A DNA stretch of 64,000 nt, taken from contig CASGEB010000001.1 of the NCBI GenBank assembly GCA_949300375.1, forward strand, positions 12,468 to 76,467, in the 5' to 3' direction. The notes below the pieces were generated by a model that saw nothing but the letters and a program-made list of their open reading frames with translations, was not told where the DNA came from and made no database searches. The stretch is from an uncultured Pseudomonadota bacterium (GTDB lineage: Bacteria > Pseudomonadota > Alphaproteobacteria > RF32 > CAG-239). This document shows, piece by piece, positions 4,106-63,351 of this stretch; position 1 is the first letter of the stretch, and the number at the start of each line of letters is the position of its first letter. Both the position numbers and the translations under genes were made by a program.

Positions 4106-4123
4106 CCGGCTGTTTAAATAGTC

Positions 4124-4156
4124 AAAAGCCTCTCTTTTCAGAGAGGCTTTTCTTTT
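4124..4156 (+). terminator. Rho-independent terminator after infB
   Basis: An 11-bp perfect stem aaaagcctctc/gagaggctttt with a 6-nt loop, followed by cttttaatc. Confidence 0.8.
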
Positions 4157-19518: not shown

Positions 19519-19549
19519 AAAACTCCGGAAAACACTTCCGGAGTTTTTT
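19519..19549 (+). terminator. Rho-independent terminator after grpE
   Basis: A 12-bp perfect stem aaaactccggaa/ttccggagtttt with a 5-nt loop and a T run. Confidence 0.85.
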
Positions 19550-19560
19550 ATATATTTGGT

Positions 19561-19796
19561 AACCACAAAACACAGTTTTATAAAAGGCTGGTGCTACGCA
19601 GTTACTTTCCAACAACGTGTACCAAACAGATACACGAGGAAAAAAGAAACAAGCATGACCGATCTTAAAAAATTAAAACTTGATATATGAGGCAGATAAT
19701 AAGAAAAGGAAATTTTGGCGACAGGAGTGTATAAAAACATACATGACTTAGCCAAAATTTCCTTTTCTGTATTAGGTGCCCATAGAGCAAGTTTTA
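19561..19796. repeat. Nested-palindrome element locus 1: degenerate A-type unit plus intact B-type unit
   Basis: The B unit has lower stem aagaaaaggaaattttggc/gccaaaatttccttttct and upper stem tgtat/ataca. The right end gcaagttttaaa contains the fabG stop codon. Confidence 0.8.
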
Positions 19797-20531
19797 AATC
19801 ATGGCCATTCCGCCATTGATATTAATAGTCTGCCCCGTAATATACTGCGCCTCATCGGAAGCCAAAAATGCCACAACATTGGCAATATCCTGAGCTTCAC
19901 CGAGCTTGCCTTCCGGAATTTTCGCCAACAGGGCTTTTTTAACATCTTCCGGCAAAACATCAGTCATCGGCGTACGGATAAAGCCCGGCGCAATCGAGTT
20001 TACGGTAATGCCGCGGGAACCGACTTCCTGAGCCAGACATTTGTTCATGGCAATCATACCGGCCTTGGAAGCGGAATAGTTGGCTTGGCCGGCATTCCCG
20101 GTAACACCGACAACCGAGGCAATACCGATGATACGGCCGTAACGGCGTTTCATCATACCGCGAACGGCAGCTTTTGCCAATTTGAAACCGGCGGAAAGGT
20201 TAACATCCAAAACCAGCTGCCAGTCTTCATCACTCATTCTGATAAAGAGATTGTCGCGTGTCAAACCGGCATTATTTACCAAAATATCAATACGGCCGAG
20301 CTTTTCCTCAACTTTTTCAACCAAAGACTTTACATCTTCAGGATTTGTCAGGTTAGCCGTAAAGACCTCAACATTGGAACCGAGTTCTTCTTTCAGTTTA
20401 AGCATTGGTTCTTCGCGCATATCGGTCAAAGCCAATGTAGCGCCCTGAGCATGCAGCGTCCGGGCGATTTTATCACCCAAACCGCCGGCGGCACCGGTAA
20501 TCAGGGCAATTTTTCCATCTAATCTAAACAT
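19794..20531 (-). CDS. fabG: 3-oxoacyl-[acyl-carrier-protein] reductase FabG
   Basis: 245 aa SDR with TGAAGGLG, NNAG and the YSASKAG catalytic motif. It lies directly downstream of fabD. Confidence 0.93.
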   Translation of the reverse strand: MFRLDGKIALITGAAGGLGDKIARTLHAQGATLALTDMREEPMLKLKEELGSNVEVFTANLTNPEDVKSLVEKVEEKLGRIDILVNNAGLTRDNLFIRMSDEDWQLVLDVNLSAGFKLAKAAVRGMMKRRYGRIIGIASVVGVTGNAGQANYSASKAGMIAMNKCLAQEVGSRGITVNSIAPGFIRTPMTDVLPEDVKKALLAKIPEGKLGEAQDIANVVAFLASDEAQYITGQTININGGMAMI

Positions 20532-25484: not shown

Positions 25485-25754
25485 CAACCGCAGAACGCAG
25501 TTTTTACCAAAAATTACGAAGAATGAGGCTAGTAATAAGAAAAAACCTTTAAGGCGACAGGAGTGTACGTAGTGGTACATGATTAGCCTTAAGAACTTTC
25601 TATACTAAACACCCTTTCAAGCCGCTGTAAAACTGCGGTATGTGAGTCAGATAATAAGAAAAAAGAATTTTAGCGACAGGAGTGTATAAAGACATACATG
25701 ACTTAGCTAAAATTCTTTTTTCTGTATTAGGTGACCGCAGAGCGCGGTTTTACC
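25485..25754. repeat. Nested-palindrome element locus 2: array of a terminal fragment, an A-type unit and a B-type unit
   Basis: The A unit is at 25521-25610 (stem partly decayed, upper stem tgtac/gtaca). The B unit is at 25647-25754 (stem agaaaaaagaattttagc/gctaaaattcttttttct, upper stem tgtat/ataca). It ends 1 nt before the hppA stop. Confidence 0.85.
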
Positions 25755-28166
25755 CTATATTTTCATCTTGTAGAAAGACCGATATACAAACACCAATCCC
25801 AACAATAAGAAGAAAATACCCAGGCCGAGAGATACACATCTCGGAGCCGCTACGGCCATCTCAACCGCCAGCAAACCGAACAACGTCGTAAATTTGATAA
25901 TCGGGTTGAGAGCAACGGAAGACGTGTCTTTGAACGGATCACCGACCGTATCGCCGACAACCGTCGCATCATGCAGCGGCGTGCCTTTCTCGTTCAAATC
26001 GACCTCAACCACTTTCTTGGCGTTATCCCATGCGCCGCCGGCATTCGCCATAAACAAAGCCTGGAACAAACCAAATACGGCAATTGAAATCAGATAGCTT
26101 GCAAACAGATTTGCGTCAAAGCAGGCAAAAGCAATCGTAAAGGAAAAGATTACGATAAAGATGTTAAACATACCCTTTTGCGCATAAATCGTGCAAATCT
26201 TGACCACTTCCTGAGAATCTTTCTGCGAAGCAGCTTTCTTACCGCTCAGTTTGATATGTTTTTTAATAAAATCAACCGCACGATAAGCACCGGTCGAAAC
26301 CGCCTGCATTGAAGCGCCGGAGAACCAGTAAATCACCGCACCGCCGAGAATAAGGCCGAACAGGACTTGCGGATCCAGCAGATTCAGTTTCAGGTTAAGC
26401 AGCAGGATAATCGAGAAAATCATCGTCGTTGCGCCGATAACGGCCGTACCGATAAGCACCGGCTTGGCCGTTGCTTTAAAGGTATTTCCGGCGCCGTCAT
26501 TAGCCTCCAGCAAATGTTTGCCTTGCTCAAAATTCGGTTTAAAGCCGTATTTTTTCTCAATATCTTTATCAACGTTCTTAATACCTTCAATCTGAGAAAG
26601 TTCAAAAACAGACTGGGCATTGTCGGTTACCGGACCATAGCTGTCTACGGCAATCGTAACCGGCCCCATGCCAAGCATACCGAAAGCCACCAGACCAAAA
26701 GCAAACACTGTCGGATAAACCATAAAGCTGTCCAAACCGGATTGAGCGGTAAAGAATGCAACCACCATCAGGCCGACCATAACGGCACCTTGCCAGAAAG
26801 CCGAGAAATTACCGGCAACAATACCGGAAATAATATTCAGCGAAGCACCGGCCTCACGGCTGGATTTGACAATTTCCTGAACATGCTGGGATTTTGACGA
26901 AGTAAAGATTTTGGTAAATTCCGGAATCAAAGCCGCAGCCAAAGTACCGCAGCTGATAATCAGAGAAAGTCTCCACCACAAATCGGGGCTGAGATCGCCG
27001 ATCATCACATAAGAAACGCCGAAAGTAACGGCAATCGAGATAATGGAAGTAAACCAAATCAGGCTGGTCAATGGTTTTTCAAAATCAAAAAATTCCTTTT
27101 TGCCGTAAAGGGCGCAAGAAACTTTGTTATTGAGCCAGTAAGAAACTAATGAAGTAATAATCATCAGGAGTCTCATGGCAAAAATCCAGACAATCAGACG
27201 AGCCTGAAAATCAATGCCGTTCGGCATCAGGGTCAAATCGCCGTTCGGGGCATACATCATACCGGCGCCCAAAACGATAAAGCTGATAAGAGCCACGCCG
27301 GTAACGCCGTAAGTTTCAAAACCATCGGCAGTCGGGCCGACGGAGTCGCCGGCATTATCACCGGTACAATCGGCAATCACGCCCGGATTGCGGGCATCAT
27401 CTTCACCGATTTTGAAAATAATTTTCATCAGGTCTGCGCCAATATCGGCGATTTTGGTAAAAATACCGCCGCAAATACGCAAAGCCGCCGCCCCTAAAGA
27501 TTCACCGATGGCAAATCCGATAAAGCAGGCGCCGGCGCTTTCTTTCGGCACAAACAACAAAATGGCAATCATCATAATCAGTTCAACGCAAATCAGCAAA
27601 ACGCCGATAGACATACCGGAACGCAGCGGCAGGCTCATAACCTTGTAAGCCTTGGCTTCCAGAGAAGAAAATGCTGTGCGGGCATTGGCATAATTGTTAA
27701 TGCGCATACCAAACCAGGCCACTGAATAAGAACCGAGAATACCGAGAACCGACCAGGAAAGGATTGTCAGCACTTTCGGCATCGGCGTTGCGTTGAGATA
27801 ATAGAAATAGTAGAAAATACAAACCGCAATAAACAATTCCAGAAGCAAAAGCAGTTTAGCTTGTTGTTTCATATAGGTTTTGCAGGTCGCATAAATCAGT
27901 TCCGATACTTTCAGCATGGCTTCGTGAGCAGGCATTTTTTTGATTTTAAGAAATTCGTACAAACCAAAAAGCATACCAAGGACGCAAATGCTCATGCCGT
28001 AAAACAAAATCTGCGATCCGAGGACGGAATAACCGAAGATATTGTATTCCACATCCAAAGACGGAATTTTGAGGTCGATTTCTGAAGCATACGCCCCTTG
28101 AACCACCCCGACCAGCGCCAGCATCAGAGCGCCGGCGAAAGTCTTAAATTTTTTCAAACCAAACAT
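25755..28166 (-). CDS. hppA: Membrane-bound proton/sodium-translocating pyrophosphatase
   Basis: Multi-TM protein with GDNAGD- and DTVGDPFKDT-type motifs and GNTFKAT. The start chosen is MFGLKK (28166, SD aaggaaaa). The ORF-track start at 28307 adds 47 non-membrane residues and is unlikely. Confidence 0.9.
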   Translation of the reverse strand: MFGLKKFKTFAGALMLALVGVVQGAYASEIDLKIPSLDVEYNIFGYSVLGSQILFYGMSICVLGMLFGLYEFLKIKKMPAHEAMLKVSELIYATCKTYMKQQAKLLLLLELFIAVCIFYYFYYLNATPMPKVLTILSWSVLGILGSYSVAWFGMRINNYANARTAFSSLEAKAYKVMSLPLRSGMSIGVLLICVELIMMIAILLFVPKESAGACFIGFAIGESLGAAALRICGGIFTKIADIGADLMKIIFKIGEDDARNPGVIADCTGDNAGDSVGPTADGFETYGVTGVALISFIVLGAGMMYAPNGDLTLMPNGIDFQARLIVWIFAMRLLMIITSLVSYWLNNKVSCALYGKKEFFDFEKPLTSLIWFTSIISIAVTFGVSYVMIGDLSPDLWWRLSLIISCGTLAAALIPEFTKIFTSSKSQHVQEIVKSSREAGASLNIISGIVAGNFSAFWQGAVMVGLMVVAFFTAQSGLDSFMVYPTVFAFGLVAFGMLGMGPVTIAVDSYGPVTDNAQSVFELSQIEGIKNVDKDIEKKYGFKPNFEQGKHLLEANDGAGNTFKATAKPVLIGTAVIGATTMIFSIILLLNLKLNLLDPQVLFGLILGGAVIYWFSGASMQAVSTGAYRAVDFIKKHIKLSGKKAASQKDSQEVVKICTIYAQKGMFNIFIVIFSFTIAFACFDANLFASYLISIAVFGLFQALFMANAGGAWDNAKKVVEVDLNEKGTPLHDATVVGDTVGDPFKDTSSVALNPIIKFTTLFGLLAVEMAVAAPRCVSLGLGIFFLLLGLVFVYRSFYKMKI

Positions 28167-28394
28167 ATGATTTTCCTTATAGATTGATACCAACAAACCA
28201 ACGGAAACCAAACGGATTCCCGCCGTGGTTCTGCCCGTTATCTTATTATTTCTTTCTAAACAATCGGTTAAGAATCGACAAATATAATCTTTCCGCTCCG
28301 GCATCAAAAATATTGTTGGAAAAGAAAAAGATTTATTTTGGCATCAGCCCCGGGCGTGCTAATATAATTATGTATGATTTTGAGGAGAAAAAAG

Positions 28395-36983: not shown

Positions 36984-37020
36984 AAAAAAGACCGGAAAGT
37001 TTAATTTTCCGGTCTTTTTT
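36984..37020. terminator. Bidirectional hairpin terminator
   Basis: Stem aaaaaagaccggaaa/tttccggtctttttt between convergent ORFs. Confidence 0.85.
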
Positions 37021-37021
37021 A

Positions 37022-40848: not shown

Positions 40849-40883
40849 AAAACGCGTATCAAAGTTTTCAATACGCGTTTTTA
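40849..40883 (+). terminator. Rho-independent terminator after dnaB
   Basis: An 11-bp stem aaaacgcgtat/atacgcgtttt followed by ttatt. Confidence 0.75.
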
Positions 40884-48900: not shown

Positions 48901-49035
48901 ATGCTTGAATTTTTAAGATCATTAAACGGCTGGCAGATTGCAGGATTAATCTGGGTCGGATTTACAGTGATTGTATATTTGCTGATGTGGTATGACGTAT
49001 ACAAATACCGCCACATTAACAAATATGATGATTAA
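48901..49035 (+). CDS. Possible 44-aa single-TM peptide
   Basis: MLEFLRSLNGWQIAGLIWVGFTVIVYLLMWYDVYKYRHINKYDD, translated by hand. No clear SD. It is bracketed by a promoter-like site and a strong terminator. Confidence 0.25.
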   Translation: MLEFLRSLNGWQIAGLIWVGFTVIVYLLMWYDVYKYRHINKYDD

Positions 49036-49036
49036 T

Positions 49037-49078
49037 AAAAAACAGGATTCCGGCTTAAAAACCGCAATCCTGTTTTTT
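49037..49078. terminator. Bidirectional hairpin terminator
   Basis: Stem aaaaaacaggatt/aatcctgtttttt with an inner cgg/ccg pairing, between convergent genes. Confidence 0.8.
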
Positions 49079-49775
49079 ATGCCATTTTTTTATAAAAATC
49101 TTTTCTTTCTCTTCGGCTCATTGACCACAAATTTCCCAATCCGTTTATCGGCTGAACTTCATATTTTGATTCAAAATCAAACCCCCGGCTCAAAAACAGA
49201 CTGGTTGTTTTGGTATAACAGTTCATTGGGCAAAAACCGTAAAAATCCACCTGAATCAACCCGGTTTTCCGAAGAACGGCTATTGCCTTTTGATACTCCT
49301 GGCTGGTATTAACCCTGTCGCTGTCATCAAGAATAATCATCCCGCCTTCAGCCAGCTTTTGCACCGCCGCCGCACAACATTCCGCACGTCTTTTACCGTC
49401 GACCACAATAACATCAAATAAATCTTCTTGCTCAAAAATGGCATTTTCATAAATCTCGCCCTCATCCCGCCAGCGAACCTCCAGGTTAGATTCCGTCATT
49501 TCTGCCTGCCATTTCTCAAACCATTTCGGATTATCTTCAATACTAATGACCTTTTCCGCTCTTGCTGCCCAAAAATGCGAGGAAGAACCGCAGCCGTACT
49601 CAAAAATCTTCCTGTTCCGATAATCAAACTGCGACAAATATTCAATCGCCGGAAAAGTGTACCAGGGAATCGGCTTTCCGTCCCGATCGGCACAAATTTT
49701 TTCATCAATAGATTTTTCCAAAGCAAAATCTTTCTGCAGCATTTCAATCGCTTTGGCAAACTTCTCGCTGTACAT
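49077..49775 (-). CDS. Putative class I SAM-dependent methyltransferase
   Basis: 232 aa with a Rossmann-type motif IFEYGCGSSSHFWA..KVISIEDN and a later VVDGKRR...GGMIILDD. The family assignment is tentative. Confidence 0.5.
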   Translation of the reverse strand: MYSEKFAKAIEMLQKDFALEKSIDEKICADRDGKPIPWYTFPAIEYLSQFDYRNRKIFEYGCGSSSHFWAARAEKVISIEDNPKWFEKWQAEMTESNLEVRWRDEGEIYENAIFEQEDLFDVIVVDGKRRAECCAAAVQKLAEGGMIILDDSDRVNTSQEYQKAIAVLRKTGLIQVDFYGFCPMNCYTKTTSLFLSRGFDFESKYEVQPINGLGNLWSMSRRERKDFYKKMA

Positions 49776-50204: not shown

Positions 50205-51170
50205 ATGCCTCTGAGCAATTTCCGCCGCATTCTTATCCTCATATTTGTTCTTGTGCTTATTATCATAAATGCCAAATTGTACAACAAATATCATACATTT
50301 TTTTTCGAACCCCAACCGCTTTTCTGGTGCAGCAGCACTCTTCCCTTAGATAAATTGACCGACTGCATCAACAATCAATATAAAGATTCCCGTTACGCTA
50401 AAAAAAGCTCGGAATTACTTCAACAGAGGCCTTCAACAAAAGAAGCAATGTCCATATCGCCGATAACATTAACTAACACATATACGGAAATCTCCGACTT
50501 TAAAAATTTGAAAAAAGAAAACAACTTCGGCATCATCAACAACGGTTTTGCCGGCACTCTTACCCGCACGGATCAATATGAAAAATTAAAGCTGCATCTT
50601 CCCCAAACGGAATTTCCGTTTTTTTCACTGCAAAAAATCACCTTTCCTGATTCAAAAAATAAATGCCAGCCGGAAATTGAAAATATTTTATCACCGGTTG
50701 CCGTTTCTTACTGGAAATATCCTTTCTTCAGACCTATGTTCTCTTCTGATTTGCTCATTACTAAAAATCAAAAAGGCTACAAGCTCTACGCCGCCGGTTA
50801 CGAGGTCGTTCCGCTGAAAGACAAAAAAGGGTTCTTTACAGTCTCCATAATGAATTTCTGCCCGCAAAAAGACCGCTTTACTTACTGCGGTACCAATTAC
50901 ATCCGCTTTATCGATACCTATCCGCATTTCTCCGACACTATCAAACAGGCAGACATTCCGGAAAAATATAAAAAACAAAAAGACTTCTATGAAGGCTGCC
51001 CGCCTTATCCGCAAAAATTTGCAATATCCTCCGCCCCGGAGTACCCGGAACAAATTCTTTATCTGAGCGCTGACCGGAGAAAAAATCCGTCAAAACTCTA
51101 CGTTAAACTTTATAACAGAATTTTTGCCATCGACCTCCGAACAACAAACAAAAAAGGAAAAACAAAATGA
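50205..51170 (+). CDS. Hypothetical protein with an N-terminal membrane anchor
   Basis: 321 aa with an SD aaaggaga upstream and no recognisable motif. It overlaps the next ORF by 4 nt (ATGA). Confidence 0.45.
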   Translation: MPLSNFRRILILIFVLVLIIINAKLYNKYHTFFFEPQPLFWCSSTLPLDKLTDCINNQYKDSRYAKKSSELLQQRPSTKEAMSISPITLTNTYTEISDFKNLKKENNFGIINNGFAGTLTRTDQYEKLKLHLPQTEFPFFSLQKITFPDSKNKCQPEIENILSPVAVSYWKYPFFRPMFSSDLLITKNQKGYKLYAAGYEVVPLKDKKGFFTVSIMNFCPQKDRFTYCGTNYIRFIDTYPHFSDTIKQADIPEKYKKQKDFYEGCPPYPQKFAISSAPEYPEQILYLSADRRKNPSKLYVKLYNRIFAIDLRTTNKKGKTK

Positions 51171-52240
51171 CTGACATAACGCCCGAGGATTTTCTGCCCG
51201 AAAATTTTGAACAATTTCAAAACCGGATCCCCGGACTAAAAATCTCCGACCGATTAGCTGCCGGCAATCCGCTGAAAAAACTGTTACATCATATCGAAAA
51301 TAAACAAAACAACGGAATTCTTTTCAAATTAACATATCTTGCCTGGATTGCCTATCTGACACTTTTTGCCGGATCTGCCTTATATCAAAAACACCCTTCG
51401 GCACCGGCAATGATGATTATGTTATTTTCCGTATATACCTTTGCAGTCATTACTTGGAAAAAATCTCCGATTACCCCTTACTGCCTGCCTCAGATAACCT
51501 TATTTTTCAAAACTTATTCCGTAATAAACCGCGCCCTAAAACAAGCAAAAGAACAAAACACCGGCTCCAAAATCTCCTTCAGAAAAAAAATAAAACAAAC
51601 TTTTTTCAACAGGTTCTTCATCATTGCCAACATCGGAAGAATTGAACGGCTTTCCACGGAAGAAGAAAAGCGTCTTCTAAAAATCAGAAAATTTGTCGAC
51701 CAGGTATTCATTGACCGTTTTATCCTTTTTCTGGGATTTTTTGCTTACATAATTCTTTATTGTCAAAATGCACTTTATCTCAGCAATCCGGGAATAGACC
51801 ATAAAAACGCCATTATTAATTTCATAAACGACGTCTTCTTTGCCTCATCGTCCCTCAGCAGTCAGGCTTTTCTAAATTTTATGTTTCTCAACATTATTTG
51901 TATTATGTTTTTAATATACGGCGGAAACATTTTCGCCCCGTATCAGTGGCAAAAGATACGCAAATTCATAAAAAACAAGCCCTGCGGAAAATTCAAAAAA
52001 TTTATTTTCCGCCCGATAATAAAAATAATCTATTTCCTGTTGATGCTTTATATATTCATAACTTTATGCTATGGAATTCCGGTATTTTATTCGGATTTTG
52101 AACTTTCGGGAAAATGGATTCCCGTTCTGGCCGTTTTTGGAGCCTGTGCTATGTTCTTCCATTTTTCATCAATCGCCGCAATCACATTCATCCGGCAGCT
52201 GGCTTTATTTTTTAACCGTTTTTGCCGAAAAGAAAACTAA
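51167..52240 (+). CDS. Hypothetical polytopic membrane protein
   Basis: 357 aa with multiple hydrophobic helices. It is translationally coupled to the previous ORF. Confidence 0.45.
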   Translation: MTDITPEDFLPENFEQFQNRIPGLKISDRLAAGNPLKKLLHHIENKQNNGILFKLTYLAWIAYLTLFAGSALYQKHPSAPAMMIMLFSVYTFAVITWKKSPITPYCLPQITLFFKTYSVINRALKQAKEQNTGSKISFRKKIKQTFFNRFFIIANIGRIERLSTEEEKRLLKIRKFVDQVFIDRFILFLGFFAYIILYCQNALYLSNPGIDHKNAIINFINDVFFASSSLSSQAFLNFMFLNIICIMFLIYGGNIFAPYQWQKIRKFIKNKPCGKFKKFIFRPIIKIIYFLLMLYIFITLCYGIPVFYSDFELSGKWIPVLAVFGACAMFFHFSSIAAITFIRQLALFFNRFCRKEN

Positions 52241-52294: not shown

Positions 52295-53323
52295 CTAACG
52301 GATTAATCTTGCTGCTTTGGAAGATATCTGCATCAACGTATAACTGACAATCTCCTCAACCGGCATATTTGTCGTTTTACAATCCCGTTCACACTTATAC
52401 AAAAGCTCAATAACCCCGAGAACATTATTTTTATTCCAAATATTCAGCTGGCGCTTGAAACTTCCTTCGCGAAAGAAAATAATCCGCGGAACCAGCCGCC
52501 CCATCGCCCGTTCAATGCTGTCGCCGTTTTCCATATAAGACAACGCCGTCAGAATTTTATTAAAATGATAAGTCAGGGTTCGTACAATCGAAATCGGTTC
52601 ATTCCCTTCATTAATCATTTTCTGATAAGCCCGCAGCGCCTTTTCCTTATCTCCGCCGGCCGTAAAATAGCAGACATCATCGCTGCTGGATGCCGATGCG
52701 TCTGAAACAACCGCGCGAACATCATCGCTACCGACAGCTTTCTTATCCCCCATATAAGTTATCAGCTTTTCAATCTCGCCGAGATTTGTTTTACGGTCAT
52801 TGGAAAGGCGGGAACACAAAAGCTGCAAAGCCTCGTTATTAATACTGTAACCGTTTTCGCTCAATTTCCCGCGCACAGTGGAAAACACGTCTTCGTCCCG
52901 GTCATCGTAACAGGCAATCACGCCCATATCTTCCCGGGATTCTCCCAAGGCAACCAAAGAAGATTTTTTATTCAGACTGCCGGAAGAGATAATAATCAAA
53001 GTATCAGAAACCGAACCATCCAAAAGAATTTTTAAATGTTTGGTCAGATTATTATCGGCATCTTTGATAACAATCACACGCCGTCCGCCCATCAACGACT
53101 GGCTGGAATATTCCGCCGACAATGCACCGATGTCTGAAAGAATATCGGAACAATTAAAATACACCACCTGAAAAGGATCATAGATATCCGGACTGATGCT
53201 TTTGGTCAGATTTTTCACATACTCGGCCTGCAAACCTTCATTACTGCCATAAACCAGAAAACACTTTATCTGTTCATCGGGCTTTTTACAGAATTTCTCA
53301 ATTTGCGCCTGTTTATAAATCAC
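52295..53323 (-). CDS. holA: DNA polymerase III subunit delta
   Basis: 342 aa in the leuS-lptE-holA conserved order. The N-terminal pattern is ..FLVYGSNEGL... Confidence 0.8.
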   Translation of the reverse strand: MIYKQAQIEKFCKKPDEQIKCFLVYGSNEGLQAEYVKNLTKSISPDIYDPFQVVYFNCSDILSDIGALSAEYSSQSLMGGRRVIVIKDADNNLTKHLKILLDGSVSDTLIIISSGSLNKKSSLVALGESREDMGVIACYDDRDEDVFSTVRGKLSENGYSINNEALQLLCSRLSNDRKTNLGEIEKLITYMGDKKAVGSDDVRAVVSDASASSSDDVCYFTAGGDKEKALRAYQKMINEGNEPISIVRTLTYHFNKILTALSYMENGDSIERAMGRLVPRIIFFREGSFKRQLNIWNKNNVLGVIELLYKCERDCKTTNMPVEEIVSYTLMQISSKAARLIR

Positions 53324-53871
53324 TAATAGTTCCCCCGCATTCCCATTTCACGGTGAAAATAAGCGCCCAATCGCAAAACAATGTCATTTGCAATAATTTT
53401 TGCCGCATCGGATTGTGTTTTCTTTTGAGCCATAGTTGTTGAATAAGGATTCGCTAAAATATCATAACTCACAAAAGACACGCTGTCCCCTTTCACCAGC
53501 GTTTCATTGCTTGTTGTCGACACCAGTTCATATCTTACGGAATAACGAACACGTTCGCGTGTTGCCGTAATATCCCGGCGCAGCGCCTGCTGAATGATTT
53601 CTTTATCCTGAAGGGTCACAAACAGACGGTATTGCGGATTTTTAGGCATTCCTCTCGGCGTAATCAAATCCAAAAGTTCATTTCGAATTTCCTGACCGAA
53701 ACGGTCTGCAATCGGCTCAACTTTGACTTTAGCCATTTCAGATGTTACCGAAGTATCAAAATTTCCGCTGAAATACCAACCCGAAGAATCCTCTTTCTGC
53801 GCATACAAAGGCTCAAAGCCACAGGCTGATATACAAAATAACGCCAAAAAACCGCCGATTGCTTTTTTCAT
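53323..53871 (-). CDS. lptE: LPS-assembly lipoprotein LptE
   Basis: It has the lipobox ISACG and is about 180 aa. It sits between leuS and holA. Its stop overlaps the holA start by 1 nt. Confidence 0.7.
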   Translation of the reverse strand: MKKAIGGFLALFCISACGFEPLYAQKEDSSGWYFSGNFDTSVTSEMAKVKVEPIADRFGQEIRNELLDLITPRGMPKNPQYRLFVTLQDKEIIQQALRRDITATRERVRYSVRYELVSTTSNETLVKGDSVSFVSYDILANPYSTTMAQKKTQSDAAKIIANDIVLRLGAYFHREMGMRGNY

Positions 53872-54002
53872 ATTCGTCCTTTTATAAAAAATTCACTCAC
53901 AGCAAATTTAACCTCATTTCCGCCGCAAGTCCATAATTTTTTAACGGAAAAACCCCAAAATTACATTAATCCGAACGACAAAAAAGTTTTCCACTTCCAC
54001 CT

Positions 54003-54143
54003 CAGGCCGCTGTAAAAAACGCGGAGAATGAGGCTAGTAATAAGAAAAAAACTTTAAGGCGACAGGCGCGTACATAGACGTACGTAACTTAGCCTTAAAG
54101 TTTTTTTCTGTATTAATAGACCATTATACGCGTTTTTTACGCA
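54003..54143. repeat. Nested-palindrome element locus 3: compact A-type archetype (about 140 bp)
   Basis: The arms are gccgctgtaaaaaacgcggagaatgaggctagtaataagaaaaaaactttaaggc and gccttaaagtttttttctgtattaatagaccattatacgcgttttttacgcaac. The central stem is cgtac/gtacg. The right arm contains the last two codons and the stop of leuS. Confidence 0.85.
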
Positions 54144-56614
54144 ACAAGGTTGATGATTTTATTAGGCACCACTATAACCTTTTTAAGCTCTTTGCCTTCC
54201 AGCTGCCGCTTAACATTTTCAAGCGACAATGCGGCTTTTTCAACCTCTTCTTTCGGCGCATCTTTCGGCAAATCGATTGTACCGCGCATTTTGCCGCAAA
54301 TCTGAACGGCATAAGTAACGGTATTTTCCTCTGCCAGTTTGGCATCGCCTTTCGGCCAGGACGCCGTAATAATCAACGACGTATGTCCCATTCTTGCCCA
54401 CATTTCTTCTGCCAGATGCGGCGTAAACGGACACATCAAAAGCAGCAGATTTTCGTAAAGTTCCGGAGCAATTTCATCCAAAGAAGACAAATGGTTTACA
54501 TAAGTCATCAAAGAAGAAACCGCCGTATTAAACTTCATCTGGTCAATTCTTTCGGTAACTTCAAGAATGGTCTTGTGCATCATCTGAATGTCTTTAGCCG
54601 AAGGCTTGGCATTTTTATTAACCTTCTTAAACAAATTATACACTTTGCCGACAAAACGGTACACACCGTTCAAACTGTCATCGGACCACATTGCCACTTG
54701 GTCAAACGGCCCGATAAACATCTCATACAGGCGGAAACTGTCTGCCCCGTAATTATTGACAATGTCATCGGGATTAATTACATTGCCGCGCGATTTTGAC
54801 ATTTTCTCGCCATTCTCGGCCAAAATCATACCATGCGACGTCCGGCGCTGATAGGGTTCTTTGGTCGGCACATAACCGCAGTCATACAAAAACTTATGCC
54901 AGAAACGCGAATAAAGCAGGTGTAACGTCGTATGCTCCATACCGCCGTTATACCAATCGACATTCATCCAGTAATCCAACGCTTCCTTAGAGGCAAACTC
55001 TTTGTTATTGTGCGGATCGCAATATCTCAGAAAATACCACGACGAACCCGCCCAGTTTGGCATAACGTCGGTCTCTCTGCGCGCCGGCGCCCCGCATTTC
55101 GGACAAGTCGTATTAACCCAGTCGGTGGCCTTTGCCAAAGGAGAGTCGCCGTTATCATTCGGCAGATAATCGGGAACCTCCGGCAAAGTCAGAGGGAGCT
55201 GGTCTTCAGGAACAGGCTGCCAGCCGCAATGCTCACAATAAACCATCGGAATAGGTTCGCCCCAATAACGCTGGCGCGAGAATACCCAATCACGCAGTTT
55301 GAAATTAACCTTCGATTTGCCAAAACCGTTTTTTTCGGCAAAAGCAATTGCAGCCTTCATAGCCTCTTCTTTATTCATACCGTCCATAAAGCCGGAATTG
55401 ATATGCGCGCCGTCTTCTTCCCAGGCCTTTTCGGCAATATCGCCGCCGGACAAAACCTGAATAATCGGCAGATTAAAAGCTTTGGCAAAATCATAGTCGC
55501 GTTGATCATGCGCCGGCACCGCCATAATCGCGCCGGTACCGTAACCGGTCAGAACATAATCCGAAATAAATACCGGAATCAACGTTCCGTTAAACGGATT
55601 CTTTGCTTTAATCCCTTTCAGTTCAACACCTGTCTTGCTGTCATCCATCGTTCTCTGCAAATCAGACTTCTTGGCTGTTTCTTCAACATAAGCTCTGATA
55701 TCTTCAGGATTTTCAAATTGCGACATCAGTTCGGATACAAAAGCATGCTCCGGCGCCATAACCATGTAAGTCACGCCAAAGGCCGTATCCGGGCGCGTTG
55801 TAAAGACTTTGAGCTTTCTTCCGCCTAAAGAATTGCCGTGGACATCAACCAAATCAAAGTCCAGCTCGGCGCCTTCCGAACGCCCGATCCAATTAATCTG
55901 CTGTGATTTAACACGGTCAATAAAATCCAAATCGTCCAAATCATTAATCAAACGGTCGGCATATTTGGTAATTGCTACCATCCACTGCTCTTTGTCTTTA
56001 CGAACGACTTGCGCGCCGCAGCGTTCGCAGCAGCCGTTGACGACTTCTTCGTTAGCCAGGCCGACTTTGCACGACGGACACCAGTTGATTGCCATTTTGC
56101 CTTTATATGCCAACCCTTTTTCAAAGAGTTTGATAAACATCCACTGCGTCCACTTGTAATATTCCGGATCACAGGTGTTAAAAGCTCTGTCCCAGTCAAA
56201 ACTAAAGCCGATAGACTTCAGCTGGCGGGTAAAGTTTTCAATATTGGCTTTAGTGGAAACCGCCGGATGAACACCGGTTTTGATTGCATAATTTTCCGCC
56301 GGCAGGCCAAAAGCGTCAAACCCCATCGGATACAAAACGTTAAAACCCTGCATTCTTTTTTTGCGCGCCACAACGTCCAACGCCGTATAAGAACGCGGAT
56401 GTCCCACATGCAGCCCGGCACCGGACGGATAAGGAAACTCGACCAGAACATAATATTTTTCCTTATGCTTGTCGATTTCTACCTTATAAGCCTTGTTTTC
56501 ATCCCAAATGCTCTGCCATTTTTTTTCAATTTTTTTAAAATTATAACGGTCTTCCGTTTCCCATTCTTTTGCCCATTCCTCAAATGAGCCTTTTCCATTA
56601 TATCTGTCAGTCAT
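54137..56614 (-). CDS. leuS: Leucine--tRNA ligase
   Basis: 825 aa with HVGHPRSYT (HIGH) and KMSKS motifs and a CP1 editing domain. Confidence 0.97.
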   Translation of the reverse strand: MTDRYNGKGSFEEWAKEWETEDRYNFKKIEKKWQSIWDENKAYKVEIDKHKEKYYVLVEFPYPSGAGLHVGHPRSYTALDVVARKKRMQGFNVLYPMGFDAFGLPAENYAIKTGVHPAVSTKANIENFTRQLKSIGFSFDWDRAFNTCDPEYYKWTQWMFIKLFEKGLAYKGKMAINWCPSCKVGLANEEVVNGCCERCGAQVVRKDKEQWMVAITKYADRLINDLDDLDFIDRVKSQQINWIGRSEGAELDFDLVDVHGNSLGGRKLKVFTTRPDTAFGVTYMVMAPEHAFVSELMSQFENPEDIRAYVEETAKKSDLQRTMDDSKTGVELKGIKAKNPFNGTLIPVFISDYVLTGYGTGAIMAVPAHDQRDYDFAKAFNLPIIQVLSGGDIAEKAWEEDGAHINSGFMDGMNKEEAMKAAIAFAEKNGFGKSKVNFKLRDWVFSRQRYWGEPIPMVYCEHCGWQPVPEDQLPLTLPEVPDYLPNDNGDSPLAKATDWVNTTCPKCGAPARRETDVMPNWAGSSWYFLRYCDPHNNKEFASKEALDYWMNVDWYNGGMEHTTLHLLYSRFWHKFLYDCGYVPTKEPYQRRTSHGMILAENGEKMSKSRGNVINPDDIVNNYGADSFRLYEMFIGPFDQVAMWSDDSLNGVYRFVGKVYNLFKKVNKNAKPSAKDIQMMHKTILEVTERIDQMKFNTAVSSLMTYVNHLSSLDEIAPELYENLLLLMCPFTPHLAEEMWARMGHTSLIITASWPKGDAKLAEENTVTYAVQICGKMRGTIDLPKDAPKEEVEKAALSLENVKRQLEGKELKKVIVVPNKIINLVA

Positions 56615-62000: not shown

Positions 62001-62250
62001 CCTCAGACCGCTGTAAAAAACGCGATATAAGCGCTAAGCAAAAACAACCGCTACTCCGGTTGTTTTTGTCTGCAAGCTCTTTGTAACATCTTGGCAAGCA
62101 AGGAAAGCGTTAGCAACCGCAGCGCGCCTAGATGCCTAAGTCAGATAATAAGAAAAAAGAATTTTAGCGACAGGAGTGTATAAAAACATACATGACTTAG
62201 CTAAAATTCTTTTTTCTGTATTAGGTGGCCACAGAGCGCAGTTTTTACCC
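62001..62250. repeat. Nested-palindrome element locus 4: left end, a 110-bp insert and a B-type unit
   Basis: The left end ctcagaccgctgtaaaaaacgcg is nearly identical to locus 3. The insert carries the hairpin aaaaacaaccg/cggttgttttt. The B unit is almost identical to 25647-25754. The right end gcgcagtttttac contains the stop of the LptG-like gene. Confidence 0.85.
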
Positions 62251-63351
62251 GTCCTCGAGATGGAGAAGAACCGACACGCTAATCATCATCACAATCAGCG
62301 CCGGCGTCCAAACCGCCAAAAAACCCGGAATAATATTATTAATTCCGAAAGCATAAATAACTTGCGACATAAAATAGACGATAAAGCCGGTAGAAAGTCC
62401 GCCGACAATCAGATACATCACGCCGCCGCGCCGGTTATTCGGACGCAGGGCAAAAACCGCCGCCACCAAAACCATGGAGCAAAGCAGAAAAGGCGAGGCC
62501 AGCAGGGATAAATAACGCAGCCTGTGTTTCTGCGCCGAAAAACCCGACATCTCATAAAAATGGATTGTATCCGGCAAATCCCAAAAAGAGATAGATTCCG
62601 GCTCAACAAAATTTTCTTTTATCCGTTCTATTGTCAACGTTGTTTTATACATAAGCCTGTCCTGTGATACGGTTGGCTTTCCAGGCTCATAAATTTTAAC
62701 ATTAATCAACTCAAACGCATCATCCTTCAAATTGGCGGCATAAGCCTCAATCCGGCGCAAATTCTGCGATTCTCTGCTCATCTCCAAAATCGTTACGCCG
62801 CGCAAAAACAATGTATTATGTTCCTGCCGGACAGACTTTGCCTGCAAATAAAGAAATTTATCGGCATTGATTGCCTCGCGCAGCCACAACCCTTTTTCAG
62901 AAAAAAGAACAGCTTTCGGATTGCGTGTTTTAAAACGATAATTCAGCGTCTCGTACAATTCATTCATTCGGGCGGAAATCGGATTAACCACCGTAACATT
63001 GACCACGCCGACCAAAAATGTTGCCAAAAGAACCGGCGCCAAAAAACCCCAGATAGACACGCCCGCGCTCCGGATAATCACAAATTCGTTGCTTTTACTG
63101 AGTTTCCAAAACGTAATCATAGCCGCAATCATCATCACAAACGGGAAAACCATTTCCACGGTTTTCGGCAGTTTGGTAAAAGCCATCTCCATAATCAGGC
63201 CAAAAGATGCGTCGTCCCGGCCGGAAGCCCGGCGCAGCAGTTCAACAACTTCAAACAGCATAACAATTCCGATTACCATCAGCAAAACGGCAAGAAAATT
63301 GTAAACAATCTGTTTAGTCAGATATCTTCCAAGAATAGACTGCGGGTTCAT
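62245..63351 (-). CDS. lptG: LPS export ABC transporter permease (LptF/LptG family, LptG-like)
   Basis: 368 aa with YjgP/YjgQ topology: three TM helices, a periplasmic beta-jellyroll region, then three TM helices. The N-terminus is ILGRYLTKQI...FEVVELLRRA. Confidence 0.75.
   Translation of the reverse strand: MNPQSILGRYLTKQIVYNFLAVLLMVIGIVMLFEVVELLRRASGRDDASFGLIMEMAFTKLPKTVEMVFPFVMMIAAMITFWKLSKSNEFVIIRSAGVSIWGFLAPVLLATFLVGVVNVTVVNPISARMNELYETLNYRFKTRNPKAVLFSEKGLWLREAINADKFLYLQAKSVRQEHNTLFLRGVTILEMSRESQNLRRIEAYAANLKDDAFELINVKIYEPGKPTVSQDRLMYKTTLTIERIKENFVEPESISFWDLPDTIHFYEMSGFSAQKHRLRYLSLLASPFLLCSMVLVAAVFALRPNNRRGGVMYLIVGGLSTGFIVYFMSQVIYAFGINNIIPGFLAVWTPALIVMMISVSVLLHLEDG

Follow-up and report, generated by a model that had tools for sequence, protein, structure and literature searches.

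A dispersed palindromic repeat of uncultured gut Alphaproteobacteria keeps a near-constant strand orientation and joins gene stop codons by one end

We analyzed a 64,000-nucleotide stretch of DNA, hereafter called the window, in which leuS and lptE are neighbors on the minus strand with a spacer of 265 nt between them. Roughly half of this spacer is filled by a palindromic repeat of about 129 nt, the right end of which is joined to the leuS stop codon. Throughout, the plus orientation of the repeat is the one that places box L ahead of box R. The locus contains the following features.

54137 to 56614, minus strand: leuS (825 aa; tRNA-synt_1 and Anticodon_1 domains), with its stop fused to the repeat
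54137 to 54139, minus strand: leuS stop codon TAA, the gene's own, which coincides with the terminal T and adjoining As of the arm
53323 to 53871, minus strand: lptE, the downstream gene, which starts 5 to 30 nt after the leuS stop in most relatives
54012 to 54140, plus strand: full repeat unit, outermost pair G54012-C54140 (covariance model hit 54002 to 54151, 126 bits)
54012 to 54030, plus strand: left outer arm (T/A-run, variable P1 CGCGG, GAGAATG), an 89% inverted repeat
54038 to 54047, plus strand: box L, TAATAAGAAA, with conserved core TAATAAGA, which is also kept in copies not selected by pattern
54043 to 54060, plus strand: 5′ half of the inner stem (P3), a 100% inverted repeat that varies between copies with compensating changes
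54061 to 54091, plus strand: 31-nt center, with conserved flanks around a 6-bp hairpin (from the fold and the alignment)
54092 to 54109, plus strand: 3′ half of the inner stem (P3′), inverted repeat
54105 to 54115, plus strand: box R, TTTCTGTATTA, with bulged G54110 and conserved core TCTGTATTA, which is also kept in copies not selected by pattern
54122 to 54140, plus strand: right outer arm (CATTATAC, P1′ GCG, T-run, A), which includes the complement of the leuS stop

The outer stem, formed by 54012 to 54030 and 54122 to 54140, is 89% paired, and its P1 segment covaries across the family in an alignment of copies. The inner stem (54043 to 54060 with 54092 to 54109) is a perfect 18 bp. In the center, GCGTAC at 54068 to 54073 pairs with GTACGT at 54080 to 54085, and the G.T pair that closes this hairpin is conserved, with alignment columns 78 and 99 holding G.T in 83 of 100 copies. 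Folded as RNA, positions 53990 to 54160 reached -64.6 kcal/mol on the minus strand (z -8.4) and -64.0 kcal/mol on the plus strand (z -7.2), and none of 200 shuffles matched the energy of the native sequence. A sequence-only reading of this locus had described a long imperfect palindrome between the two genes with a 31-nt center that forms its own small stem, and both descriptions hold, the small stem having 6 bp. It had also equated the palindrome with the whole core of the spacer, which overstates its extent by about a factor of two, and had put the end of leuS inside the right arm; the stop codon does pair in the outer stem, but just one or two of the bases preceding it are paired.

Using BLAST and an unfiltered covariance model, we found five copies in the window, all on the plus strand. 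In addition to the copy at leuS, the window carries the following copies and parts of copies.

19661 to 19810, plus strand: second full copy (126.8 bits), right end fused to the stop of a fabG-like gene (19794 to 20531, minus strand)
25488 to 25507, plus strand: lone right-end remnant, CCGCAGAACGCAGTTTTTAC, read from the sequence
25508 to 25616, plus strand: copy with a decayed right arm (47.5 bits), head-to-tail with the next
25616 to 25765, plus strand: full copy (127.2 bits), right end fused to the stop of an H+-pyrophosphatase gene (25755 to 28307, minus strand)
62004 to 62024, plus strand: left end of a split copy, separated from the remainder by a 118-nt insert
62143 to 62259, plus strand: remainder of the split copy (covariance model hit 62112 to 62259, 90.5 bits), right end fused to the stop of an lptF/G-like gene (62245 to 63351, minus strand)

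These are the three further loci at which related copies had been noticed from the sequence alone. The remnant, the decayed unit, and the full unit make 25488 to 25765 a small graveyard of copies, all arranged head-to-tail. The 118-nt insert (62025 to 62142) in the left arm of the 62004 to 62259 copy has its own terminator-like hairpin, AAAAACAACCG...CGGTTGTTTTT, and is also repeated, with 15 BLAST hits in the loci that we fetched (numbered with the prefix L), among them L106 at its leuS site and L206 and L207 at their fabG site; this insert is perhaps a second mobile element or else a minus-strand small RNA gene. A third repeat type of about 75 to 90 nt, GGTCATGCTTGTTTC...CGTGTA...TACACG..., occupies 19575 to 19662, between the grpE terminator and the 19661 to 19810 copy, and is present in L037 and duplicated in strain L208. 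Elsewhere in the window, two adjacent genes at 50205 to 52240 (321 and 357 aa) have no Pfam match; the pair is present in L002 and missing from the same-species strain L001, where holA directly precedes the DUF378 gene.

The search pattern TAATAAGAAA-N(40-70)-TTTCTGTATTA matched the window four times, against 0.00 matches expected, and matched at least 119 stretches among 185,579 species genomes. True members of the family have 76 to 82 nt between the outer edges of the boxes; pattern matches of other lengths, which fell in other phyla, were due to chance, as were both matches in a scan of viral contigs. Together, the pattern scan and a profile search gave at least 158 copies at 100 loci in 59 assemblies. 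Going by record titles ('Proteobacteria bacterium CAG:495' or 'uncultured Azospirillum sp. UMGS63', for example), nearly all carriers are uncultured Alphaproteobacteria of the gut or rumen, and we take the carrier MAGs to belong to the GTDB order RF32. True copies also occur in three assemblies labeled Lactobacillus, Lactobacillales, or Lactobacillaceae (L049, L054, L069), for which the labels or the binning are doubtful. The outer stem and T-run resemble a terminator, and on that ground the palindrome could be put down to chance or to a terminator private to leuS; these counts, along with the failure of any shuffle to fold as well, refute that explanation, to which we give practically no credence.

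These data support the earlier assignment to a dispersed palindromic family of the MITE or REP kind, and support its statement that the element holds no ORF and is neither a tRNA nor a CRISPR repeat. At the gathering threshold, Rfam 15 gave a tRNA as its single match in the window and none to the repeat, and E-value scans of three copies returned weak generic hairpin matches, mostly to miRNA precursors, that were far below threshold. We found no published description of the family in the literature, and it is apparently undescribed.

Units are about 125 to 145 bp long and share one anatomy. On the plus strand, the 5′ half consists of a T and an A-run, P1 (about 5 variable positions), GAGAATGAG or paired variants of it, P2 (4 to 5 variable positions), box L TAATAAGA, and P3 (12 to 14 variable positions). 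The center has conserved loop flanks around the small hairpin GYGTAC...GTACRT, and the 3′ half follows with P3′, box R TCTGTATTA with its bulged G, P2′, CCATTATAC or variants, P1′, and a T-run followed by an A. The T-run after P1′ is 3 to 8 nt long and matches the A-run before P1. The consensus fold comprises 41 pairs, in 26 of which both sides have changed, and 94.6% of cells are paired as compared to 75.4% in shuffles. The covariation score was 0.512 against 0.162 for shuffled alignments (0 of 500 reached it), and controls with slid partners scored 0.06 to 0.13. Since the search pattern fixed both boxes in advance, box conservation was checked on 27 full-length copies that had not been selected by it; the box cores were kept in these, with a compensated swap of GAAA/TTTC to GATT/AATC.

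The two strands do not fold equally well. With DNA parameters, the plus strand folded better in 95 of 100 copies (-30.2 versus -25.6 kcal/mol, a difference of about 4.5), and with RNA parameters it did so in 92 of 100. This advantage arises mainly because of G.T pairs, including the conserved one in the central hairpin; the plus strand holds 184 G.U pairs versus 76 A.C. We considered a C-to-T mutation bias acting on the exposed strand and rejected it, as by our own reasoning it predicts wobble pairs on the strand opposite to that observed. A TATAAT in the gene-sense arm was likewise dropped as a candidate promoter, because it occurs in one subtype only.

The plus strand of the repeat lies on the C-rich strand at 98 of 100 loci (p 8e-27), and in 57 of the 59 assemblies every locus obeys this rule. 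With the elements masked, GC skew around copies set to the plus orientation was negative in 108 of 111 cases, with a mean of -0.135. Gene direction does not account for the pattern: the rule holds for 34 of 35 copies between convergent genes, 6 of 6 between divergent genes, 42 of 45 copies fused to no gene, and 23 of 24 within arrays. Genes on the repeat's plus strand have a skew of -0.055 and those on the other strand -0.18, leaving a gene-independent part of about -0.12. The window itself has a plus-strand skew of -0.115 overall, negative from 4 kb to its end, and roughly half of its genes are on the plus strand. The leading strand is usually the G-rich one, and here the G-rich strand carries 66% of coding bases. 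From GC skew and gene-strand bias, the sole basis of the assignment in these incomplete genomes, the plus strand of the repeat is presumed to lie on the leading-strand template. We infer that the orientation follows replication, with its direction read from GC skew, and not gene direction. Among the incomplete assemblies, no contig was seen in which the orientation flips at an origin or terminus. One locus that breaks the rule is L079 (1 to 2440), where a copy at 61 to 195 is fused to an EF-Tu-like stop on the C-rich strand and adjoins an ORF for an HNH_3 endonuclease (369 to 1394) without relatives in the other loci.

We compared the leuS site with that of relatives, using the last 200 residues of LeuS as the query in a metagenome scan. 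This gave 80 loci at 65 to 93% identity, of which about 76 have no repeat at this site; a repeat follows the leuS stop in L126 (93%) and L139 (74%). The repeat-less proteins end in ...IVVPN(K/R)I(V/C/I)N(I/L)VA*, and in these relatives lptE begins 5 to 30 nt past the leuS stop or a plain terminator takes the place of the repeat. Some of them share GTTGCGTAAAAA, and L158, L163, and L181, which have no repeat, read AATATTGTTGCGTAAAAA, the same as the GTT GCG TAA AAA context of the window. The sequence-only reading had raised the idea that the terminal leuS codons and stop come from the element. Because repeat-less orthologues have the same end and the same stop context, the C-terminus is not element-derived, and that idea is refuted. 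The comparison also shows that the repeat at leuS is an insertion in the lineage of the window.

The fusion seen at leuS is the rule for the family. In 85 copies, a long ORF ends no more than 200 nt from the right end, and in 60 of these its stop codon is 16 to 28 nt past box R, most often at 19 to 21 nt, so that the stop coincides with the terminal T and adjoining As of the arm. At the left end, stop fusion was found in 1 to 2 of 36 copies and showed no peak. The fused stops are TAA in 82%, TAG in 15%, and TGA in 3% of cases, compared to background values of 59%, 16%, and 25%, and 58 of the 60 start with TA, such that the right end is joined to T-A-(A/G)-A-A. As at leuS, proteins of fused genes end at the same residue as their repeat-less orthologues in IF-2, FtsH, EttA-like proteins, and two further families, which indicates that the fused stop is the gene's own and is not supplied by the repeat. 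Selection for read-through within operons was rejected as the cause, since fusion is equally common between convergent genes (20 of 41) and co-directional genes (26 of 51). In L054 (1 to 8000), which encodes SU10-like phage portal and adaptor proteins, a copy is fused to the portal stop by its left end, the rare orientation.

The preference for TA brings to mind a cut-and-paste MITE of the Correia/IS630-derived type that targets TA, with the orientation bias arising from later loss of copies that place the stable hairpin on the lagging-strand template. Elements of this type are marked by a TA target duplication and family-specific terminal inverted repeats. In our repeat, a T precedes the A-run in 52 of 85 copies (61%) and an A follows the T-run in 59 of 92 (64%), which is compatible with a TA duplication; the depletion of TGA among fused stops fits as well, and the strand difference of about 4.5 kcal/mol is in the direction needed. 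A symmetric target, however, cannot explain fusion by the right end only. The linkage between the left T and the right A is also weak (odds ratio 2.3, p 0.10), and flanks such as GT..AC and TT..AA look more like extensions of the palindrome than like a direct duplication. We therefore regard this origin as improbable.

Differences between strains and the near-identity of copies at unlinked loci show that the repeat is mobile. With 98% identity to the window across 16 kb, L001 is of the same species; its repeat at the leuS stop shares the outer stem and boxes with that of the window and differs in the inner stem and loop. At this site, a sister-species MAG (BRZ_BN__bin26, L106) has the type found in the window together with a further composite repeat, and L102 has four head-to-tail units; tandem arrays reach five units. 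Four unlinked loci of one MAG (L044, L051, L056, and L099) hold copies that are near-identical even in P1 and the 4-nt runs, and the whole hairpin therefore travels as a unit. Exact-protein look-ups for filled and empty alleles at the strain level gave replacements or other repeats and no clean insertion. A distinct short palindrome that resembles REPs, GTCATTCTCGGGC...GCCCGAGAATG, recurs around the copies in L044, L051, L056, L099, L034, and L019. Three metagenome contigs (L004, L005, L006) end inside the repeat, and spurious ORFs were called over it. The family thus breaks short-read metagenome assemblies, and strains could be told apart by its variable inner part.

The sequence-only reading had held that the element is not a simple terminator, and this is half right, as the outer stem with its A-run and T-run is shaped like the plain two-way terminators of the window. 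Such ordinary terminators follow plus-strand (C-rich) genes of the window at 4106 to 4150, 19520 to 19550, 36984 to 37021, and 49035 to 49079, roughly 10 to 25 nt or more past the stop codon, and none is fused to it, whereas four minus-strand genes (fabG-like, H+-pyrophosphatase, leuS, and lptF/G-like) carry the repeat at their stops. In the window, infB is on the plus strand and has a plain terminator 20 nt past its stop, and in five other species a fused copy is found at infB. At 40849 to 40882 there is a plain two-way terminator, AAAACGCGTAT...ATACGCGTTTTT, that looks like the outer right arm of the repeat made symmetric; it could be the relic of a copy or a coincidence.

The host might accordingly select the hairpin for a function in RNA, either two-way termination or stabilization of 3′ ends, although its copies would still need a way to spread. 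In addition to the shape and the different gene ends of the two strands in the window, this is suggested by contexts at 3′ ends (55 co-directional and 38 convergent versus 7 divergent), by the strong covariation, and by occupancy of the infB, lptF/G, ftsH, ettA, and H+-pyrophosphatase stops in 3 to 5 species each. The plus strand, which is antisense to the fused gene, is also the one that folds better as RNA. In a variant of this explanation, the stronger plus direction blocks antisense or convergent transcription that runs head-on into leading-strand genes. Several observations argue against host selection. The conserved wobbles are A.C mismatches in the mRNA of the fused gene, which is unexpected for a selected RNA stem; a two-way terminator needs no orientation relative to replication, yet nearly all of the unfused copies obey the strand rule; and the arrays and turnover between strains resemble mobile DNA. 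On balance, we think it rather unlikely that host selection explains the family.

Our tentative preference is for a non-autonomous element that moves as folded single-stranded DNA at replication forks and also looks like a two-way terminator. This reading is based on the strand rule, the one-ended join, the head-to-tail arrays, and stems that conserve pairing alone around fixed boxes and bulges. We hypothesize that the repeat is moved or retained as a folded single strand at the fork. Recognition by a structure-specific enzyme would depend on the conserved boxes, the bulged base, and the little hairpin at the center, and pairing would be all that is required of the stems. The join would occur next to T-A-A on the strand exposed at the fork. 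If only joins that spare genes survive, one end would come to lie on the stop codons of leading-strand genes, and repeated joins would produce head-to-tail arrays. Once inserted, the outer stem with its A-run and T-run would act as a two-way intrinsic terminator.

REP/REPIN-RAYT elements, IS200/IS605 ends, and integron attC sites are known systems that work in this way. For IS608, the lagging-strand template is the substrate (PMC3333891, PMC6006769), REPINs carry compensatory changes and form arrays oriented by replichore (PMC3116915), and the orientation of attC sites follows replication (PMC5371416). One close likeness is to the REPIN and REP-BIME elements of the RAYT (TnpA-REP) system, for which a single-stranded DNA mechanism has been proposed (PMC3116915, PMC3333891, PMC2817692). 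These are also intergenic, high-copy, and non-autonomous, occur in clusters and arrays, and persist within a lineage, and in a REPIN two inverted halves likewise fold into a hairpin of about 100 nt, with compensatory changes in the less conserved parts, comparable to the 26 of 41 pairs changed on both sides and the 94.6% pairing described above. REPs carry a GT[AG]G tetranucleotide 0 to 2 nt 5′ of the hairpin foot (PMC6006769), whereas in all 100 copies of our repeat the 14 nt 5′ of P1 lack GT[AG]G and the 14 nt 3′ of P1′ lack C[TC]AC. Our arrays are head-to-tail where REP arrays alternate, we did not find the near-absolute replication orientation or one-ended stop fusion described for REPs, and, where REPs flank a single-copy RAYT gene, a crude motif scan of the fetched loci and the window showed no such gene near our copies.

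The ends of IS200/IS605 elements and their miniature derivatives share with our repeat an orientation bias relative to replication (for our repeat 98 of 100 loci, with 57 of 59 assemblies fully consistent; direction taken from GC skew), a polar join that adjoins a short sequence at one end, and hairpins in which mismatched or bulged bases are conserved. Insertion in that family is 3′ of a fixed tetra- or pentanucleotide and leaves no target duplication; our repeat is joined to T-A-(A/G)-A-A at one end and has no obvious direct duplication. The family differs in having two distinct subterminal hairpins, where our repeat is a single end-to-end palindrome. The better-folding strand of our repeat is on the presumed leading-strand template, and no TnpA turned up near the copies.

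Like attC sites, for example the approximately 125-nt Vibrio cholerae repeats, our repeat of about 129 nt is an imperfect palindrome within the range of 57 to 141 nt, has a conserved stem base and a variable top (P3 and the loop), carries a bulged base (the G in box R), and sits right after an ORF in a fixed orientation to gene and replication. Overlap with the stop codon is frequent among attC sites. The attC strand that recombines in sedentary integrons is on the leading-strand template (PMC5371416). The AAC and GTT triplets are the sole conserved bases of attC (PMC5371416), and among 100 copies of our repeat AAC was present in 40, GTT in 45, and both in 36. Unlike attC, the repeat is dispersed behind leuS, infB, ftsH, lptF/G, ettA, and fabG in conserved gene order, has no cassette array or adjoining integrase, and forms tandem units without ORFs between them.

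Correia elements of Neisseria, ERIC/RU-1, and other MITEs are also palindromic intergenic repeats of 100 to 170 bp, and can serve as terminators or RNA-processing sites (PMC2229807). Comparing the Correia inverted end, the ERIC core, and the E. coli REP consensus with the repeat copies gave no match. The copies do resemble two-way intrinsic terminators in their A-run, stem, T-run, and location at 3′ ends, and differ from them in a stem of about 60 bp with conserved internal boxes, in being multi-copy, and in changing between strains. To our knowledge, neither a replication-strand bias nor a stop-codon polarity has been reported for elements of the Correia or ERIC type.

Movement as folded single-stranded DNA, the reading we tentatively prefer, also faces difficulties. 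No transposase or recombinase was found near the copies: when 801 neighboring ORFs were clustered, housekeeping families alone recurred, and a crude scan for the HUH-Y1 motif over all fetched loci and the window, more than 1 Mb, gave 0 matches. The two segments flanked by inverted copies held the HNH_3 ORF without relatives in other loci and SU10-like phage genes, respectively. The better-folding plus strand is on the presumed leading-strand template, which is presumably the least exposed. Exact stop fusion at about 70% exceeds what a short T-A-A target and a viability filter easily explain, and copies at the stops of the same genes in 3 to 5 species could mean long-term retention under selection. 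Swapping of inner parts between copies is left unexplained by this reading.

Our analysis adds the replication-strand bias, the one-ended stop fusion, and the covariation to what the sequence-only reading had noticed. Few parts of bacterial genomes are as poorly understood as small palindromic repeats, and this family comes from a gut lineage seen only in metagenomes. Few repeat families show so cleanly an orientation that is 98% tied to replication or an exact placement on native stops, and both features bear directly on how the family spreads. We speculate, as a possibility that we consider doubtful, that the repeat is either a new replication-coupled hairpin that homes precisely to native leading-strand stop codons or a domesticated, direction-specific barrier that keeps head-on antisense transcription out of leading-strand genes. 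If either is true, the strand rule and the stop fusion would be functional features and not by-products. In compact operons such as leuS-lptE-holA, insertion of the repeat also adds a likely terminator.
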